In this document: one piece after another, positions 29,090-38,924 of the stretch
Layout: every line of letters starts with the position of its first letter
Numbering within the stretch: position 1 is the stretch's first letter
NCBI GenBank assembly: GCA_049968235.1
Contig: JBMFRC010000013.1
Location: forward strand, 18,422 to 82,421
Reading direction: 5' to 3'
Length of the DNA stretch: 64,000 bases
Source of the DNA: Candidatus Hydrogenedens sp.
Lineage (GTDB): Bacteria > Hydrogenedentota > Hydrogenedentia > Hydrogenedentales > Hydrogenedentaceae
Notes under the pieces: generated by a model
Database searches by the model: none
Seen by the model: only the letters and a program-made list of their open reading frames with translations
What the model was told of the DNA's origin: nothing
Position numbers and translations under genes: made by a program

Positions 29090-29485
29090 TCATTGTTTAC
29101 TTTCATTTTTATTCCGGTCTGATTCTAAAAAATAAGCCTTCTGTTTACAATGCCTATGGCAATGTCTACCACCACCACGCTCCTTCTGTCTGCAAACAAA
29201 ATTGACAGGTCCCCCCATTATCCGAATGGGCTTCCCCTCTACAATAGCACCAACAATCTTCCTGCGTGCCTGCTCAATGATTCGTGAAAATGTGGGGCGT
29301 GAGACTCCCATTTCTTGCCCCGCTTCTTCATGATACATTCCCAAATAATCAGCGAGACGGAGTGCTTCAAACTCATCCAGAGAAAGCACTACTGGCTCTC
29401 TTTCCATTCCTCCCTGTTCACAAGGAATGAATTCCTTAACGGGCGGGCATGCATTCAATCTTCGGGAACAATAGGGTCTTGCCAT
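29090..29485 (-). CDS. DUF134 (UPF0251) family predicted DNA-binding protein with Cys/His-rich C-terminal tail
   Basis: Cys-containing N-terminal block (YCSRRLNACPP...FIPCEQ) plus sigma-70 region-4-like HTH (LSLDEFEALRLADYLGMYHEEAGQEMGVSRPTFSRIIEQARRKI) typical of DUF134; tail CRQKERGGGRHCHRHC. Confidence 0.6.
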   Translation of the reverse strand: MARPYCSRRLNACPPVKEFIPCEQGGMEREPVVLSLDEFEALRLADYLGMYHEEAGQEMGVSRPTFSRIIEQARRKIVGAIVEGKPIRIMGGPVNFVCRQKERGGGRHCHRHCKQKAYFLESDRNKNESKQ

Positions 29486-29514
29486 TATAATTCCTTTTTA
29501 ATTTTCACGATTCA

Positions 29515-29536
29515 TTATGAACATATGTTCATAATT
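29515..29536. promoter_or_regulatory. perfect 22-bp palindrome ATTATGAACATATGTTCATAAT, 30 nt upstream of the DUF134 gene and in the divergent aceE control region
   Basis: read directly; the sequence equals its own reverse complement. Confidence 0.6.
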
Positions 29537-29694
29537 ATAACGCAGTTTCGTAGCAAAAGTAAACAAAAATAACTAATTTTTTAGAAAGATACTCAAAAAA
29601 AAAAAAATAAATTAATCAATTAATTTGTTAGTATAATTGGATAATTAACATGGAATATTTAGTAAAATAAAAAAAAACAGAGGGGACGCTATTT

Positions 29695-32388
29695 ATGAGT
29701 AGTTCTGATTATAAAAATGAGATGCAAGAACAAATCAGTGCAATGACTTTTCCGGATGAAGAATGGATTGATGCATTAAAAGCCTATCTGGAAGAACGAG
29801 GTCCTCAGGCAACAGCAAAGTTGATTCGAAGACTTCAGGATTATACTTACCTTTTAGGTATTCGCAAGCCCTGCCCCGCAACTACGCCGTATGTTAATTC
29901 CATTCCTGTATCGGAACAGCCGGAATATCCAGGTAATCGTGAATTAGAACGAATTATTAAATCATATATCCGCTGGAATGCAATGGCAATGGTAGTTCGT
30001 GCAAACCGCGAAGCAGATGGTATTGGGGGGCATATATCTACTTATGCTTCTGTAGCCACCCTATATGAAGTAGGATTTAACCATTTTTTCAAGGCACGAA
30101 CTGAAGACTACGGTGGTGATTTAATTTATTTTCAGGGACATGCTTCACCGGGAATATATGCACGAGCTTACTTAGAGGGACGGCTTTCCGAGAATGACCT
30201 AAAAAACTTTCGACGCGAATTAAATAAAGGAGGAGGCTTGCCGTCATATCCACATCCACGACTTATGCCGGGATTCTGGCAATTCCCAACCGTTTCTATG
30301 GGACTGGGTCCTATTATGGCAATATATCAGGCACGGTTTAACAAATATTTAGAGAATCGGGGTTTGAAGCCTAAAAATGGTGGATATGTTTGGGCATTTT
30401 TGGGAGATGGCGAGACCGATGAGCCGGAAACATTAGGTGCTATTGGTTTAGCCAGTCGCGAGAAATTAGATAACCTAATTTTCGTCATCAACTGTAACTT
30501 ACAACGTTTAGATGGTCCTGTTCGTGGCAATGGAAAAATTATACAGGAGTTGGAAGCCATATTCCGCGGAGCAGGCTGGAATGTAATTAAAGTGGTTTGG
30601 GGTAGTGATTGGGACCCGCTATTTGAGAAGGATGAACATGGTTTATTGGTAAACGCATTAGGGGATATTGTTGATGGTGAGTATCAGAAATTTTCTGTTT
30701 CATCCGGGGAATATATTCGCAAAAAAATGATAGAACATGAACCGCGTCTGGCTCCGTATCTCGAACAGGTTTCAGATATTCAATTACGCCAATTGCGTAG
30801 GGGTGGACATGACCCGGTAAAGGTATATTCTGCGTATTATCATGCGTTACAAACACAAGGGACTCCTACGGTAATATTGGCAAAGACAATCAAAGGATAT
30901 GGACTTGGTGAAAGTGGCGAAGGGAAGAATATAACCCATCAACAAAAGAAACTCAATGAAGATGAACTACGCGAATTTCGGGCTCGCTTCGGGATTCCTG
31001 TCTCCGATGATGAGATTGCCTTCGCCCCGTTTTGTAAACCACCGGAAGACCATCCCGCTATGATATACCTCCAGGAACGACGCAAGGCATTAGGCGGGTA
31101 TTTGCCCCATCGCGATGTATTGGCACCGCCTTTACCTGCACCTGAAAACGAGCTGTTTGATGAGTTTTATAAAGGGACACCTCGTCCCGTCTCCACAACG
31201 ATGGCATTTGTTTCTATTTTACGAAAATTATTACAACATGAACGGATTGGCAAATTAATCGTTCCTATTGTGCCAGACGAAGCACGCACTTTCGGTATGG
31301 AAGGATTATTCCGTCAAATAGGAATTTATTCTTCGCAAGGACAAAAATACGAACCTGTAGATTCCGAATCGGTTCTGTATTACAAAGAAACAACAGATGG
31401 GCAAATCCTTGAAGAAGGGATTTCAGAAGCAGGTTCAATGGCTTCTTTTATTTCTGCAGGAACCGCTTATGCCAGTCATGGAATTAATACCATTCCTTTT
31501 TTCATCTTCTATTCTATGTTCGGATTTCAGCGGATTGGTGATTTAATCTGGGCATCTGCAGATATGAAAGTACGTGGATTTCTCGTAGGTGGCACTGCGG
31601 GCAGAACAACCCTTGCCGGGGAAGGTCTGCAACATCAGGATGGACACAGTCACCTCCTCGCTATGTCTGTTCCCTGCCTTCGTGCATATGACCCCGCGTA
31701 CGCCTACGAAATAGCCATTATTGTGCAGGAAGGCATTCGTAGCATGTATGAAAAGCAGGAACCGGTATTTTATTATTTAACTGTGGGCAATGAAAACTAC
31801 ACCATGCCACCTATCCCGGCGGGGAAAAAAATACGCGATGGGATTATTAAAGGTTTATATCTACTTCGACCTTCTTCCTTAAAAAAATCAAAAATGAAAG
31901 TAAATTTATTAGGCAGTGGTTCATTACTTAATGAAGCACTAAAAGCACAGTTCGTTCTCGAAGAGGAATTTAATATCTCTGCAGATGTATGGAGTGCCAC
32001 GAGTTATAAAATGCTCCGTGAAAATGCCCTGGAAACAGAACGCTGGAATCAGCTACATCCAATATCTACCAAAAAAATTCCGTATGTAACCGAATGCCTG
32101 AACAACAATGCACATGCAACCATTGCCGTTTCCGATTATGTAAAACTTGTTCCGGACAGTATATCCCGATGGGTTCCGCAAAGGTTTATATCCTTAGGAA
32201 CAGATGGTTTTGGGCGTTCCGATACACGAGAAGCCCTGCGACATTACTTTGAGGTAGATAGCCGGTATATCATACTATCTGCCCTGTCTGCACTGGCTCA
32301 AGATAAGAAAATAGATACAAATATCGTAAAAAAATACATGCGGTCCGCAGATATACCTGCAAATAAAAAGTCTCCTATGGACTTATAA
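29695..32388 (+). CDS. aceE: pyruvate dehydrogenase E1 component, homodimeric type
   Basis: 897 aa; ThDP-binding GDGE..N block (FLGDGETDEPE...NCN) and overall AceE architecture; GAGGGGA SD. Confidence 0.9.
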   Translation: MSSSDYKNEMQEQISAMTFPDEEWIDALKAYLEERGPQATAKLIRRLQDYTYLLGIRKPCPATTPYVNSIPVSEQPEYPGNRELERIIKSYIRWNAMAMVVRANREADGIGGHISTYASVATLYEVGFNHFFKARTEDYGGDLIYFQGHASPGIYARAYLEGRLSENDLKNFRRELNKGGGLPSYPHPRLMPGFWQFPTVSMGLGPIMAIYQARFNKYLENRGLKPKNGGYVWAFLGDGETDEPETLGAIGLASREKLDNLIFVINCNLQRLDGPVRGNGKIIQELEAIFRGAGWNVIKVVWGSDWDPLFEKDEHGLLVNALGDIVDGEYQKFSVSSGEYIRKKMIEHEPRLAPYLEQVSDIQLRQLRRGGHDPVKVYSAYYHALQTQGTPTVILAKTIKGYGLGESGEGKNITHQQKKLNEDELREFRARFGIPVSDDEIAFAPFCKPPEDHPAMIYLQERRKALGGYLPHRDVLAPPLPAPENELFDEFYKGTPRPVSTTMAFVSILRKLLQHERIGKLIVPIVPDEARTFGMEGLFRQIGIYSSQGQKYEPVDSESVLYYKETTDGQILEEGISEAGSMASFISAGTAYASHGINTIPFFIFYSMFGFQRIGDLIWASADMKVRGFLVGGTAGRTTLAGEGLQHQDGHSHLLAMSVPCLRAYDPAYAYEIAIIVQEGIRSMYEKQEPVFYYLTVGNENYTMPPIPAGKKIRDGIIKGLYLLRPSSLKKSKMKVNLLGSGSLLNEALKAQFVLEEEFNISADVWSATSYKMLRENALETERWNQLHPISTKKIPYVTECLNNNAHATIAVSDYVKLVPDSISRWVPQRFISLGTDGFGRSDTREALRHYFEVDSRYIILSALSALAQDKKIDTNIVKKYMRSADIPANKKSPMDL

Positions 32389-32413
32389 CACATAATTAAA
32401 GAAGGAATAGACC

Positions 32414-33739
32414 ATGCCAAAGGAATTCCGATTACCCTCGCTGGGGGAAAATGTTGCAGAAGCAACTATTGGTAAGATTTTAGTAAAGGTTGGAGATATT
32501 ATCCGTAAAGGACAGACTGTCTTGGAAATTGAAACGGATAAAGCGGTGGCAGAAATACCCTCTTCGCAGGAGGGTAAAATACTAGAAATCCATGTGAAGG
32601 AAGGGCAAAAAGTAAAGCCCGGCATCTTAATTTTTACTATAGAGGAGATAACAGGGACGAGCACACCACCTCCTGAGCCTGTTTCTACACCTGAAGGGGG
32701 AAAAGTATCTCCACCAAAACAAGAAAGGCTTGTTTCTCCTCTTGTCGAAAAACCTGTGCCATTACGACCTTCTTCAGTTTCGGTAGTCGCAAGTCAAAAA
32801 GCAACATCGAATATTCCCATTTTGGCTTCCCCATCGGTTCGTAGATTGGCACGCGAATTAGGAGTTTCACTTGAAGAAGTCCCTGCATCGGACACGTCCG
32901 GAAAAATCTCTACGGAAGATGTTATTGCGTATCATAAGAGAAAGACAGAAAATATAGCGATAGTGGAAACGGAGATAAGCCATGATATGCCCACATCTGA
33001 ATCTGCAGAAGAGATAGATATATCATCTTCCAAAGATTCCTGGGGACCTGTGGTTATTGAACCGATGAGTACCATTCGCAAAAAAACCGCGGAACAAATG
33101 ATGCGTAGTTGGTCTGCTCCACACGTAACCCATTTTGATAAAGCGAATATAACGCAATTGGAAGAACTCCGTGAGGCATGGTCAAAGAAAATTCAATCCG
33201 CCGGCGGTAGATTAAGCGTACTCATTTTTACATTGAAAGTCGTTGCCGAAGCATTAAAAAAATTCCCAAAGTTTAATACCAGCATTGACCTCGAAAAAGA
33301 ACAAATTATCTATAAAAAATATTATCATATCGGTGTTGCGGTTGATACAGAATACGGACTTCTGGTTCCTGTCCTGCGAAATGTGGATAAGAAGTCAATT
33401 AAAGAACTTTCTATTGAACTCCCAAAATTAGCGGAGAAAGCCCGACAACGGAAATTAACTTTAGAAGAATTGCAGGGTGCCACATTCACTATAAGTAATT
33501 TAGGCGGTTTAGGGGGTACTGGCTTTACACCGATTATAAATGCGCCACAGGTGGCTATTTTGGGGATGTCCCGTTCCAGTATGGAACCTATATACCAAAA
33601 TGGTAGTTTTATTCCACAACTCATGCTACCTTTAAGTTTGTCGTATGACCATCGTGTTATCGATGGAGCAGAGTCCGCTCGTTTTGTTCGCTGGATTTGT
33701 AATGCTCTTGAAAATCCATGGAATATATTTCTTGAATAA
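32414..33739 (+). CDS. aceF: dihydrolipoamide acetyltransferase E2
   Basis: single lipoyl domain (EIETDKAVAEIPS), Pro/Ser linker, E3-binding domain, catalytic DHRVIDGA. Confidence 0.85.
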   Translation: MPKEFRLPSLGENVAEATIGKILVKVGDIIRKGQTVLEIETDKAVAEIPSSQEGKILEIHVKEGQKVKPGILIFTIEEITGTSTPPPEPVSTPEGGKVSPPKQERLVSPLVEKPVPLRPSSVSVVASQKATSNIPILASPSVRRLARELGVSLEEVPASDTSGKISTEDVIAYHKRKTENIAIVETEISHDMPTSESAEEIDISSSKDSWGPVVIEPMSTIRKKTAEQMMRSWSAPHVTHFDKANITQLEELREAWSKKIQSAGGRLSVLIFTLKVVAEALKKFPKFNTSIDLEKEQIIYKKYYHIGVAVDTEYGLLVPVLRNVDKKSIKELSIELPKLAEKARQRKLTLEELQGATFTISNLGGLGGTGFTPIINAPQVAILGMSRSSMEPIYQNGSFIPQLMLPLSLSYDHRVIDGAESARFVRWICNALENPWNIFLE

Positions 33740-33767
33740 TTAAGAATTACAAACAGAAGGAGGTCTT

Positions 33768-35195
33768 ATGCCCGAAGTAATTCAAACACAGGTTGCAGTC
33801 ATTGGTGCAGGTCCGGGTGGTTATGGATGCGCCTTTATGTGTGCCGATTTAGGACTACAAACGGTTCTTATCGATGTAGAAAAGAATCCAGGCGGGACAT
33901 GCCTCTATCGAGGTTGTATCCCAACAAAATCTTTACTCCACATATCTCATGTAATTTCCAATGCGTTAGAGGCAAAAAAATTTGGCGTTCACTTCCAGAA
34001 ACCAAAATTAGATATTAATGAAATACGAAAAAATGTGCAGGGTGTCGTCGAACACTTAACCGGTGGTTTGGGTCAACTAACGAAGTTACGAAATATTAAT
34101 TATGTTCAGGGACGAGCCAGTTTCCTGGATTCAAACACATTAGAAGTTTTCTTGATGGATGGTCGAGAATTACGTATCCATGCAGAATATACTGTCATTT
34201 CTGCTGGTTCGAGACCCGCCTTATTTGGACAACCTATTGATTCGCCAGATATTATGAATTCCAATACTGCTATCAACATAGAGGATATACCCGAACGATT
34301 ACTGGTTATTGGTGGTGGATATATCGGGCTGGAATTAGGTACTGTTTATGCCACTTTAGGCTCTGAAGTAACACTCGTGGAGGTTACTGATGGACTACTC
34401 CCCGGTGTTGACCGTGATTTAGTGCGTCCTTTAGAAAAACATTTAGAAAATGTTATATATCAAATCCATTTAAAAACACTGGTCAAACAATTAAAACCGC
34501 AAAAGAAAGGTATTTCTGTTGAACTGGAAGGTGCGGAAATAAAAAAAACACAACAGATTTTTGATAAGGTTCTTGTATCAGTTGGCAGAAAACCCAATAG
34601 TAGCGGTTTAGGTTTAAAAAATACAAATGTGTCTGTGGACGAAAAAGGATTTATCCGTGTTGACGAACAAAGACACACAACTGACCCCTATATCTTTGCC
34701 ATTGGCGATGTTGCAGGAGGACCTATGTTAGCCCATAAAGCAACACATGAGGGACGAGTTGTTGCAGAGGTCATCTCCGGCAAGAATGTCGCCTTTGAAC
34801 CGCAAGCTATCCCTGCTGTTGTTTTCACTGACCCTGAAATTGCGTGGTGTGGACTTACCGAAGAACAAGCACGCTCAAAAAATATACCCGTTCAAGTATC
34901 AAGATTCCCATGGTCTGCTTCTGGCAGAGCCATGACAATGTTCCGTGGGGAGGGATTGACAAAACTCATAACCCATGCAGAAACACAACAAATTCTCGGT
35001 TTCGGTATCGTCGGAGCCAATGCTGGTGAACTTATCGGTGAAGCTACATTGGCTATTGAGATGGGTGCGACGCTCGAAGACCTCGACTTAACCATACACC
35101 CGCATCCTACTCTCAGTGAAACCATCATGGAATCTGCAGGTGCTTTACTCGGTAAAAGTACCCATGTTTACCGCAAACCCCAACGAAAAGAATAA
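33768..35195 (+). CDS. lpdA: dihydrolipoyl dehydrogenase E3
   Basis: FAD GAGPGG, redox-active GGTCLYRGCIPTK, C-terminal HPHPTLSE. Confidence 0.9.
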   Translation: MPEVIQTQVAVIGAGPGGYGCAFMCADLGLQTVLIDVEKNPGGTCLYRGCIPTKSLLHISHVISNALEAKKFGVHFQKPKLDINEIRKNVQGVVEHLTGGLGQLTKLRNINYVQGRASFLDSNTLEVFLMDGRELRIHAEYTVISAGSRPALFGQPIDSPDIMNSNTAINIEDIPERLLVIGGGYIGLELGTVYATLGSEVTLVEVTDGLLPGVDRDLVRPLEKHLENVIYQIHLKTLVKQLKPQKKGISVELEGAEIKKTQQIFDKVLVSVGRKPNSSGLGLKNTNVSVDEKGFIRVDEQRHTTDPYIFAIGDVAGGPMLAHKATHEGRVVAEVISGKNVAFEPQAIPAVVFTDPEIAWCGLTEEQARSKNIPVQVSRFPWSASGRAMTMFRGEGLTKLITHAETQQILGFGIVGANAGELIGEATLAIEMGATLEDLDLTIHPHPTLSETIMESAGALLGKSTHVYRKPQRKE

Positions 35196-35211
35196 ACTCC
35201 GGACAAATTGA

Positions 35212-35733
35212 CTATCCTTCATTATCGTTCATCTTATCTTCCTCATCAGGTCTTTTTATATACGTATCAATCCCATATTTATCATAAACATTAAAAATCT
35301 CCTCGCAAAACTGTATAATCCGCATATCACTTTTCTCTTTTGCTTCATTATAAAGCCTTATTATAAACCGTTTCCCAAACTCCGTTTGAGAATAATTCTT
35401 CTTTAAATAATTATTCACCGAACATAATGTTTGTCCATTTTCAACAGAATTTGTCCCTCCTTTATCCAGCGGAATCCTATGGTCCACATGTATCTCCACA
35501 CCATCTTCCCTACCCCTTACACAAACCACACAACGATAATTGTCCCTCTCAAATATTTCTTCCTTCACTGAATCAGTAAATTCAAATAACTCCCTTTTCT
35601 GAACCAAATCGGGGTCATATTTATAGACCCCTTTTTTTTCCTTTATTAGCCACCCACTTTGATGTAATTTTCGAATCCCCCACCAGGGATCTCTCGGTTT
35701 TCTCCCATACAACTTTTTATATTGTTCTTCCAC
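35212..35733 (-). CDS. HNH endonuclease (possible restriction-endonuclease remnant of an R-M pair)
   Basis: CVVC..HVDHRIP..NGQTLC HNH motif; adjacent to disrupted MTase. Confidence 0.65.
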   Translation of the reverse strand: MEEQYKKLYGRKPRDPWWGIRKLHQSGWLIKEKKGVYKYDPDLVQKRELFEFTDSVKEEIFERDNYRCVVCVRGREDGVEIHVDHRIPLDKGGTNSVENGQTLCSVNNYLKKNYSQTEFGKRFIIRLYNEAKEKSDMRIIQFCEEIFNVYDKYGIDTYIKRPDEEDKMNDNEG

Positions 35734-35834
35734 CTAATCTACAACGGGTCCATGAGATAATTATTTTTTCGGATGAGAAATAAAATATTCCATTATCAGG
35801 TCTTCAATACTAATATACTTCGACTCTTCCACTT

Positions 35835-36637
35835 CTATTCAGCCTTCCTTACCATATCGAACCTTAACTGGTCAATCTCTACCTCTTTTAACAACCGTTG
35901 TTTTGCTATTTTGCAATAGTTTTCATCTATTTCAATACCAATTCCTTTCCTATTCGTTGTGGCACATGCAAGAAGAGTTGTCCCGCTTCCTAAAAAGGGG
36001 TCTAATACCGTATCCCCGACAAAAGTAAACAATTTAATACATCGTCTTGGCAATTCAAGTGGAAACGGTGCCGGATGACCAATTCTCGTTTTGCTTTCTC
36101 CCATAAAAGTCCAAAACCCATTGGTCCACTGGACAAATTCATCTTTTGTTATGTCTGACTCTCCACTTCCACTTGTTTTTTTCCAATTATTTTTATACAG
36201 CACTGCTATCATTTCCACAGGAGCAATTACATACGGTGCCGAAGCAGATAACCATGAACCCCATGCGGTTCTTCAGGAAATATTTTGTTCATTCCAAACA
36301 ATTGCAGAATGGTATTTATAACCTATCTTTTTTGCGATAGTTATTACATCCGCAAATACACTTTGCTGTCCACCTTTGTTCTTATCCAATGGAATATTTA
36401 AACAAAACCTTCCGTCTCCTTTTAATACTCTATACGCTTTATCAAGCCAATTTGCCGTAAATGCCAGATATTCTTTATACGAAACTGTATCGTTATATGA
36501 ATTATAACTAATATCTACATTATACGGAGGGGAAGTTATAATCAAATCGATAGAATTCTCTTCAACACAATCCGTTACCAGGAAATCTGCATTGTAAATC
36601 TGCAGATTATTTCTTTCAAAATAAGTTTTTCTTTCAT
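35835..36637 (-). pseudogene. beta-class (N6A/N4C) DNA methyltransferase, disrupted by a -1 frameshift in an A5 tract (36626-36630) and an in-frame TGA (36273-36275)
   Basis: true start ATG 36637 with GAGGTG SD; motif IV DLIITSPPY precedes motif I DPFLGSGTT; frames reconstructed by hand. Confidence 0.6.
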
Positions 36638-36776
36638 GCTAAACACACCTCAAATCATTATTAACACAATCATACCATTATAATACCCCTTTTAACTTGC
36701 CTATACAAAATATTTACCTACCCGATGTATTGCTTCCTATTTACTATCATCTCATTTTCTTGTATCCCATTTTACT

Positions 36777-38924
36777 TTATTTATTTTCTGCAATCCTTTT
36801 TACTTTATCCGGCAATTTTTCTCTGTATTTGTCGGTGTATAGTCCGATTTGAGCAAAGGGGATGGGGTCGAAATTAAATCCTGATGTGATTAATATATCT
36901 TTATTTATCTCAAAATTTCCCTGTGTGAATTGAGGAAATAAGGCGTCGTCGTTATTAACTAGATTATCCTCGAAAATAATTTGGGATGCTTCCATTTTTC
37001 TCATGACTTCGTTGCATTTCCAGAATATATTTCTTCTCACGGTATTCTTATTTCTGTCCTCATAAATGTTTACTATTTCCGGATATTTTTGAACATACAA
37101 GTTGTAATCTATATCGGGCTTATTAAGGGCATCATTCACAATGTTTCTCCATTCTTCTTCGGTGCAGGTCTGAAAAGTAACGCCAATAAAACAATCCGCA
37201 AAGATATTATTTTCTATCAGGTTATCCTTACCTCCATTTACCTGAACGCCACCGAAAATGCCCTCCTTAGCACATGCTTTATAAAACACATTCCCGTAAA
37301 TCTTCACACCTGAGATAGGAAAATCCAGCCGAACTCCTCCCTGTAAAGGCAGACCAGGCTTGTCCCAATTCCCGATATGATGCCAGTAGTTGTAGCGATA
37401 TATCATACCGCGATAAGTGGGATTCCCATAACTATCCAAGCCACCCTGGTCATCTGATTCCTGAACCACATCGCAAACCTCATTATATTCAACAAGAATA
37501 TCATTTCCATCCATACGGAAAGCACTGCTCGGATTCTTATGCACAAAATTATGGGAAATCACATGTCCTACACCTTCTCCATACACCGCTGGTTTGTAAG
37601 TATGGTCAACACGGGCTAAATCATAAAAATAGCAGTTATCTACTTTGAACCCACTTGAGGTTAACGTTTTACGGTTACCCCCTTTCAAAAATACACCCCC
37701 TTTCCCTAAAGTCTCGAAGTCACAAGATTGGACACAATGGTTTTTTCCTCCATCTACGGCAACCCCATAGCCTCCACTCTGGCTAAAAGAACAACCCAAT
37801 ATTCGGATATCCTCTCCCTCAAAAATCTCTATTAGATTTCCAGAACTCAGTTTAAAATGTAATCCTTCTACATAGATATGGCTCGCATCTTCAAATGTAA
37901 ACATGGGTCCCTCAAACCATGAAAACTCAATAACTGCTCCATCCATATTTGCGGGCGGATAAAAATATAGGAGCATATTTTCCCTATCCAGATACCATTC
38001 ACCGGGCTGGTCCAATTCACACAATAGGTTAAGAGCATAAAATCTTGCCCCTTCCTTATACCCATAAGCCGAAGCAGATTGAGCCAATTTTATTTCCCTT
38101 TTATCCAGGTCAATCGAACCTATATATTCATAAGAATCCGACCAATCGTAATGCCAATATCCATGCAATAGAACATTAGGCTCATTTACCCAATTTTGAA
38201 GTGGGCAGTTCTCTACTTTGATTTTTACATTTGTCATTGTAGAAAATCCCGGTAATCGTTCAACAGTCTCTCCTTCTACTCCCGCAACATGAAGGAAACC
38301 CTCATTGGGATACCTTGCTAATGTCATAGCCTGCCCATTGAAAAATATCTCTACATATGGGAAAGCGGTATATCCTTTATAACCGCGGTCCTTCTGACGT
38401 AATTCCAGATTTCCAAATCCACCTAACTTCAACGGAGGGAGAGATTTTAATCCATACTCTTTCATATCTGCCACATAAAGTTTCTCCCATATTTCCTTTT
38501 TAATCCTACCTGAGGCATCTACTTCTCTCATCTTCTTAAAATTCTTTATCTAAATTCCACCGCTGATTATGTTTTCTGATTTATCTTCTGTGGTAATAAT
38601 AATCGGTTTCCCTTCTTCTCCACTATGCTCTTTTGTAAAAACTACTCTATCGGTTATTTTATATTCCCCTTTTTGCAGGACAATTTTTACCCCTTTTTCT
38701 GGGAATTTACCATTCTTTTTCAGTCCACCTATATAATTCAGGACTTCTTGAAATGTATTAAAAGATACCCCTTTATCAAATGCTTCCTTGTTATCATTTA
38801 CAGGCAAAACGCGGATTCTTTTTTGATAGGATAGTTCAGAGGCATACAGGAAATATCCATTTCCCATAAGAAAAAGTGCACAAACCCAGAGCACACCAAA
38901 ACGAAAAATATCCTTCGGCTTCAT
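36777..38924 (-). pseudogene. secreted right-handed parallel beta-helix (pectate-lyase fold) protein interrupted by a single in-frame TAG (38550-38552)
   Basis: the 124-aa signal-peptide ORF and the 584-aa beta-helix ORF are in the same frame, separated by TAG plus 6 sense codons; no SD for the second part. Confidence 0.5.

Follow-up and report, generated by a model that had tools for sequence, protein, structure and literature searches.

A probably fully decayed Type II restriction-modification cassette in Candidatus Hydrogenedens

Gene layout and lesions of the two genes

The DNA analyzed here, referred to as the window, is a stretch of 64,000 nucleotides from Candidatus Hydrogenedens sp. 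(contig JBMFRC010000013.1). On its minus strand lies a remnant of a two-gene Type II restriction-modification (R-M) system, in which a gene for a β-class DNA methyltransferase (MTase) is followed, 2 nt on, by that for a winged-helix + HNH endonuclease (Table 1). The 3′ end of the HNH gene is 16 nt from the stop codon of lpd, which is convergent, and the 173-aa HNH ORF that the original prediction had placed next to lpd was confirmed there. The surrounding genes are of the housekeeping type (PDH E1, E2 and E3, an epimerase, MnmA and fumarase), and neither mobile-element genes nor a defence island were found near the locus. A scan of positions 35000-37000 for promoters and terminators gave no terminator and no more sites than shuffled controls. 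The locus was compared with two further assemblies of the species, L001 (GCA_049971155.1) and L085 (GCA_049969095.1), and with one sister Hydrogenedens species, represented by L002, L003 (GCA_020216745.1) and L004.

Table 1. Positions of the two genes, their lesions and their motifs in the window
Feature	Position	Strand	Evidence
Probable pseudogene of a β-class N4/N6 DNA methyltransferase, ATG 36637 to TAG 35837-35835	35835..36637	−	PF01555, PADLOC, homologues
Shine-Dalgarno-like element GAGGTG, 8 nt 5′ of the ATG	36646..36651	−	kept in intact orthologue
Frameshift site, A5 (36630-36626) and single C (36625); CC in orthologue	36625..36630	−	DNA alignment with L003 and L004
Motif IV SPPY, catalytic	36522..36533	−	residues S36, P37, P38 and Y39 invariant
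In-frame TGA for conserved Arg codon (AGG in orthologue)	36273..36275	−	homologue and DNA alignment
Motif I FLGSGTT, AdoMet binding, 3′ of the TGA	35976..35996	−	direct reading of the repaired frame
Probable pseudogene of the partner restriction endonuclease (winged helix + HNH), GTG 35832 to TAG 35214-35212, 206 codons	35212..35832	−	homologues, PF01844
In-frame TAA, codon 24, for Glu or Asp (GAA in orthologue)	35761..35763	−	alignments; present in L001 and L085
In-frame TAG, codon 33, for conserved Trp (TGG in orthologue)	35734..35736	−	alignments; present in L001 and L085
Residual 173-aa ORF, GTG start, without the first 33 residues	35212..35733	−	ORF list; AF2 model of homologue
AAT codon, His140 to Asn, third residue of H-N-H	35413..35415	−	CAT in L085 and in 119/119 homologues
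GTG codon, Ala116 to Val, conserved HADH motif	35485..35487	−	GCG in L085

The start codon (36637-36635) and the GAGGTG element upstream of it (36651-36646) were read directly and agree with the original assignment. The frame opened at this ATG ends after 20 codons (MKEKLILKEIICRFTMQISW, then a stop), and a one-base shift after codon 4, at the A5 run, yields a frame (...YFERNNLQIYNADFLVTDCVEENSIDLIITSPPY...) that reaches the terminal TAG with one in-frame TGA, giving a repaired product of 267 aa. This repaired translation covered PF01555 (N6_N4_Mtase) from end to end (1-221/221, E = 3e-49, 168.4 bits against a cut-off of 26.7), so that the HMM placement, on which the original prediction had been staked, put the ORF inside the DNA MTase family. 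The MTase also matched the PADLOC profile MTase_II PDLC03353 (E = 2.6e-96); the top database match shared 91% identity over 100% of the length (E = 9e-167), much more than chance would give, and the intact 267-aa protein P0001 was likewise 91% identical. SPPY at residues 36-39 stands ahead of FLGSGTT at residues 215-221, which is the circularly permuted order of the β class and bears out the class originally assigned. N4-cytosine enzymes typically have their motif IV in the form SPPY, which suggests that the target modification was m4C; the PDB matches of the MTase include both m4C and m6A enzymes. An uninterrupted MTase reading frame is absent, with a 1-nt deletion after codon 4 and a TGA at codon 122 in three assemblies. 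This TGA, which had been noticed originally, was confirmed, and the residue at its site is R in 12 of 13 homologues and K in the remaining one (1/13). With its MTase disrupted too, the locus does not qualify as an orphan (solitary) methyltransferase.

Regarding the nuclease, a database search gave 1331 homologues, typically of ~197 aa, which align from their first residues with the stretch after GTG 35832. Translation from this codon reads VEESKYISIEDLIMEYFISHPKK-stop-LSHGPVVD-stop-VEEQYKK..., and the HNH part was recognized by profiles of Pfam (PF01844, E = 1.9e-7) and PADLOC (REase_II, E = 1.8e-7). In the AlphaFold prediction for one intact homologue (pLDDT 83.5), a winged helix (residues 8-70) is joined by a linker to the HNH domain (86-146), after which come two C-terminal helices, and the N-terminal domain both models as and fold-matches a generic winged helix. 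Both stops, TAA and TAG, fall inside this winged-helix domain, and judging from the model the residual ORF would miss helix 1, strand 1 and a portion of helix 2 of it. In an alignment of 119 homologues, the window protein is changed at invariant columns (E139V, H140N and H191Y) and at near-invariant ones (R51W, V65E and A116V). Among the HNH residues, DH (117-118) and N132 are present, whereas at the third His position the window and L001 have Asn, and L085 and the 119 homologues have His. Since HNH motifs with Asn at the third position are active in some other nuclease families, H140N alone is no proof of inactivity.

The 173-aa ORF is identical to NCBI protein MGC8738900.1 and to P0241. MGC8738900.1, MGC9053364.1 and MGC8846948.1, deposited from three Candidatus Hydrogenedens MAGs, are publicly named 'HNH endonuclease' and appear in reality to be the 3′ part of a pseudogene.

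We consider it very unlikely that the 173-aa ORF still works without a cognate methylase, be it as a domesticated or non-specific nuclease or as a modification-dependent, McrA-like one. What speaks for such a function is that the ORF is uninterrupted with a recognizable HNH domain, that HNN variants of the motif are active elsewhere as mentioned above, that JGI calls many of the homologues 'McrA', and that EcoKMcrA is the top, though weak, Foldseek match (E = 0.014). On the other hand, the first 33 residues of the protein are gone, leaving the predicted winged helix incomplete, no SD-like sequence is evident before GTG 35733, and the three invariant and three near-invariant residues listed above are replaced, two of these replacements varying between strains as drift predicts. 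A Type IV or McrA-like role also fits poorly with the fact that the family is nearly always MTase-coupled, as would be expected of a methylation-sensitive Type II enzyme.

The nuclease had originally been called intact; the TAA and TAG in its N-terminal domain together with R51W, A116V, E139V, H140N and H191Y contradict this, and the stops and invariant-residue substitutions agree instead with the alternative, offered at the same time, that the HNH protein is also inactive. With the nuclease disrupted as well, the paradox of a dead methylase next to a live nuclease does not arise.

A further gene with an interrupted frame lies directly upstream of the MTase gene. This β-helix gene (38924..36777, minus strand) has a single in-frame TAG (38550-38552) where the sister species has Gln; outside this codon its protein is well conserved (76% amino acid identity, dN/dS 0.10), and the TAG comes from one assembly. 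Counting it with the MTase and HNH lesions, nonsense lesions are found in three adjacent minus-strand genes.

Lesions in sibling strains and sister species

L001 is 99.86% identical to the window over positions 29424-36672 (7.2 kb), with 6 SNPs and one indel, and L085 is 99.49% identical over positions 34834-37003, with 11 SNPs. All four lesions, i.e. the 1-nt deletion, TGA, TAA and TAG, are common to the window, L001 and L085. Because L001, L085 and the window can all be told apart at other positions, L001 and L085 represent separate assemblies of separate strains, and the recurrence of four lesions in three assemblies leaves assembly error as a very unlikely source of the three stop codons. 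In this Candidatus Hydrogenedens species the lesions are probably fixed. L085 has an ATG start and retains Ala116 and His140.

Sequencing error had been named originally as an alternative to decay. According to this explanation the organism itself has both genes whole and the lesions are errors of the consensus, for which one can point to the 1-nt deletion abutting a homopolymer and to the fallibility of MAG consensus sequences, exemplified by one sister MAG, where the PDH E2 gene, although essential-looking, has a singleton TAA. The three MAGs also carry neighbouring accession numbers (JBMFLO, JBMFPN) and could stem from a single study with a single sequencing technology, and a small chance of a systematic error at the homopolymer-abutting site AAAAAC(C), which would affect the 1-nt deletion only, persists. 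However, the four lesions recur in two more independent MAGs that differ from the window by SNPs, three of the four are stop-creating substitutions, which are atypical of homopolymer error, and the HNH gene has a raised dN/dS along with several invariant-residue replacements. We regard an artefact as highly improbable.

The E2 stop just mentioned is in L001, where Lys295 of the gene at window positions 32414-33739 is replaced by TAA (at window position 33296), while the gene is uninterrupted in the window; this TAA is either a genuine knockout confined to that strain or an error of the MAG consensus. The sole indel of the 7.2 kb alignment is at an A13 tract (plus strand, window positions 29595-29607) upstream of PDH E1, which is 4 nt shorter in L001.

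Intact orthologues, with a 267-aa MTase and a 209-aa HNH protein, were found in the sister species (L002, L003 and L004) at a DNA identity of 81-85%, and there too the HNH gene begins 2 nt beyond the MTase stop. Comparison with related genomes had been recommended as a check, and these orthologues allow the lesions to be traced codon by codon. At the frameshift site, the intact orthologue has GAAAAACCTTAT where the window has GAAAAACTTAT; the codon alignment shows AAA CCT turned into AAA C-T, with an A run of 5 in each and one C of CC missing. Residue 5 of the MTase was thus originally Pro, as in the closest homologues, and not Thr. As to the stops, the orthologue indicates that TGA arose from the Arg codon AGG, TAA from GAA and TAG from TGG. 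The original account of a homopolymer frameshift after codon 4 accordingly holds for the frameshift and its site, while the base was lost from CC and the A5 tract is unchanged.

This result bears on the idea, also raised originally, that the MTase is phase-variable and switched ON and OFF by slippage of the A tract in a phasevarion-like manner. A5 lies beside the frameshift and very near the gene's 5′ end, where switches of this kind are typically placed. Nevertheless, A5 also occurs in the intact orthologue, the base that was lost belonged to CC, the tract length is constant across the window, L001 and L085, an A5 run is short for a contingency tract, and the TGA 120 codons downstream would be fatal in either phase. 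The probability of phase variation is in our view practically negligible.

Two further origins of the stops were considered and rejected. Reassignment of stop codons (TGA, TAA and TAG in frame) is at odds with the rest of the window, which consists of long standard-code ORFs, and we know of no bacterial code that reassigns all three stops. Deaminase-type C-to-T mutagenesis does not account for the lesions, since the changes AGG/AGA to TGA, GAA to TAA and TGG to TAG together with a deletion form no single mutational class.

The window and the sister species share a block of genes in the order epimerase, β-helix, M and R, and the presence of the same block in the sister species indicates that the module was probably in the common ancestor of both. 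With L002 and L003, the edges of the block are at window positions 35224 and 39963, and synteny is gone on both sides. On one side the break coincides exactly with the 3′ terminus of the HNH gene, which is followed by lpd in the window and by a FAD-linked oxidase in the sister species; the C-termini of the HNH proteins differ between the two. A run of 56 nt with perfect identity to the sister across the M/R junction was considered as a regulatory element or a trace of recent gene conversion, and discarded since the epimerase gene has a similar run of 64 nt.

Order of decay and the wider family

The two genes are set apart by two measures. Against the sister species, dN/dS was 0.044 for the MTase and 0.168 for HNH, compared with 0.09-0.10 for the flanking genes, and deviations at invariant columns amounted to 0/80 in the MTase and 3/42 in HNH, those at near-invariant columns to 2/55 and 3/47, respectively, a difference in conserved-column deviation that is only marginal (Fisher p = 0.06). 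The low dN/dS and few deviations of the MTase point to strong purifying selection for nearly all of the divergence and to a recent death, and these figures suggest that the nuclease has been unconstrained for longer than the MTase. Since L085 has the same stops and yet the ancestral Ala116 and His140, the changes in the catalytic core are later than the stops; such substitutions match what neutral drift predicts for a dead gene.

The low dN/dS could also be taken as a sign of residual MTase activity, obtained either by recoding (frameshifting at AAA-AAC plus read-through of the TGA) or from a split enzyme made of two fragments, a 90-aa one with SPPY (36545-36273) and a 127-aa one with motif I (36218-35835). 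Apart from its lesions the coding sequence is indeed pristine, with the 0/80 and 0.044 given above, both fragment ORFs exist, and split MTases such as M.AquI are known. However, recoding would require two independent events, neither the internal GTG 36218 nor TTG 36545 is preceded by an evident SD-like sequence, a very recent inactivation explains the low dN/dS equally well, and with the nuclease dead there would be no selection for methylation unless the MTase was co-opted. We hold residual activity to be extremely improbable.

In order to place the locus in its family, GTDB species representatives were scanned. The scan gave 80 loci spread over numerous phyla of bacteria and archaea, at 50-78% identity in the MTase. 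The HNH partner was surveyed at loci with an MTase identity of ~69% or more, plus L051, where 'intact' denotes a full-length tblastn match without internal stops and not a curated gene model. At 19 surveyed loci, spread over many phyla, an HNH gene follows the MTase gene at a distance of 6-42 nt and both are without internal stops, so that the pair has the separate, adjacent and co-conserved genes expected of a Type II system. At nine loci the MTase is apparently intact while its HNH partner is missing, truncated or frameshifted: six, representing orphan states of the module, have no HNH gene within the flanks (L014, L019, L020, L023, L027 and L029), two have HNH reduced to the winged-helix part next to an intact methylase (L022, 6789-7037; L032, 6825-6980), and one has a frameshifted HNH gene (L028, 6774-7353). 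Both genes are broken at L051 (4443-5835), a WOR-3 MAG. L051, L028, L022 and L032 thus display decay of the module that took place independently in other phyla. A broken MTase with an intact HNH was found at none of the surveyed loci; L010, an apparent instance, merely has its natural stop codon within the tblastn alignment.

Across L005-L084 the MTases of distant bacterial phyla and archaea (Bathyarchaeia, Thermoplasmata, Archaeoglobales) are 65-78% identical, implying frequent horizontal transfer. Below an MTase identity of ~69%, the HNH partner is no longer adjacent.

According to PMC6471742 (discussing Seshasayee et al. 2012), R-M cassettes are lost stepwise, the REase first and the MTase being orphaned or lost later. 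The heavier damage of the nuclease and the lack of surveyed relatives with a broken MTase and an intact HNH agree with this published nuclease-first order.

Taken together, we read the locus, with a probability of about 0.9, as an ordinary, fully decayed Type II R-M cassette in which both genes are pseudogenes. The original description of a decaying R-M islet is thus upheld by lesions in both genes, and by the same nonsense and frameshift lesions the locus would not be a Type II system in the sense of having both activities. The following course of events is proposed from the sequence comparisons. The common ancestor of the two species would have carried the M-R module. The nuclease was probably inactivated first, by nonsense codons in its N-terminal DNA-binding domain followed by substitutions in the catalytic core. 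Once the nuclease was dead the MTase may have become dispensable, and it would then have acquired its two lesions recently, namely the 1-nt deletion and the change of Arg to TGA upstream of motif I. At present neither protein is likely to be made in active form, so that the locus would confer neither restriction nor methylation and would be drifting neutrally.

The significance of this reading lies mainly in annotation, in that the 173-aa 'HNH endonuclease' deposited from three MAGs would be the tail of a pseudogene and, with the neighbouring MTase also dead, the species should lack the corresponding methylation motif. The locus would be a clean natural case of the accepted order of R-M decay, nuclease then methylase, and as such of little novelty; its assets are the intact orthologue in the sister species and a strain polymorphism that reveals drift of the catalytic site after gene death. 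The winged-helix + HNH / β-MTase module is very widespread and its nuclease is without a solved structure, so it is the family, and not the broken copy, that may interest enzyme hunters. There is also a very slim chance that the lesions are not terminal and that the locus has a low-level recoded MTase with heterogeneous marking, or a 173-aa remnant, lacking the winged helix, that is retained as a nuclease in a new role, or that a milder reading at the level of the family applies. Were recoding true, it would mean heterogeneous epigenetic marking without any DNA switch; on the milder reading, the intact module would represent a Type II family that is uncharacterised and unusually mobile.

Comparison with known systems

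The best solved relative of the MTase is TTHA0409 of Thermus thermophilus (2ZIE, E = 1.3e-31), and M.PvuII (1BOO), M.RsrI (1EG2), CcrM and N4-cytosine enzymes are remoter ones. For the nuclease, a profile search of PDB with the HNH alignment matched no solved chain, and Foldseek gave no whole-protein fold match (best E = 0.014), only matches at the level of domains. The Gme HNH nicking endonuclease (4H9D) superposes on the HNH domain (TM 0.54, 30% identity), and the weak fold match to EcoKMcrA (6GHC, E = 0.014) has a TM of 0.32.

As a gene pair, the locus resembles Type II systems with a PF01555 MTase in its motif order and in the near-abutting arrangement of M and then R, and differs from them in that the window copy is, on the reading preferred here, a pseudogene. 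HNH Type II endonucleases such as R.KpnI, R.Hpy99I and R.PacI likewise have an HNH core with CxxC and DH...N...H and an MTase as neighbour, whereas the present family is marked by its winged-helix recognition domain and the window copy by two added nonsense codons and H140N. Phasevarions of Haemophilus, Neisseria and Helicobacter share with the window MTase a frameshift near the 5′ end beside a homopolymer; unlike them, the window MTase has neither a hypervariable tract nor length polymorphism, and it has an extra fixed nonsense codon. The same nuclease-heavier damage is found in the REase-first decay of R-M 'addiction' cassettes, and relative to these the window locus appears to have gone past the orphan-MTase stage, its MTase being probably dead as well.
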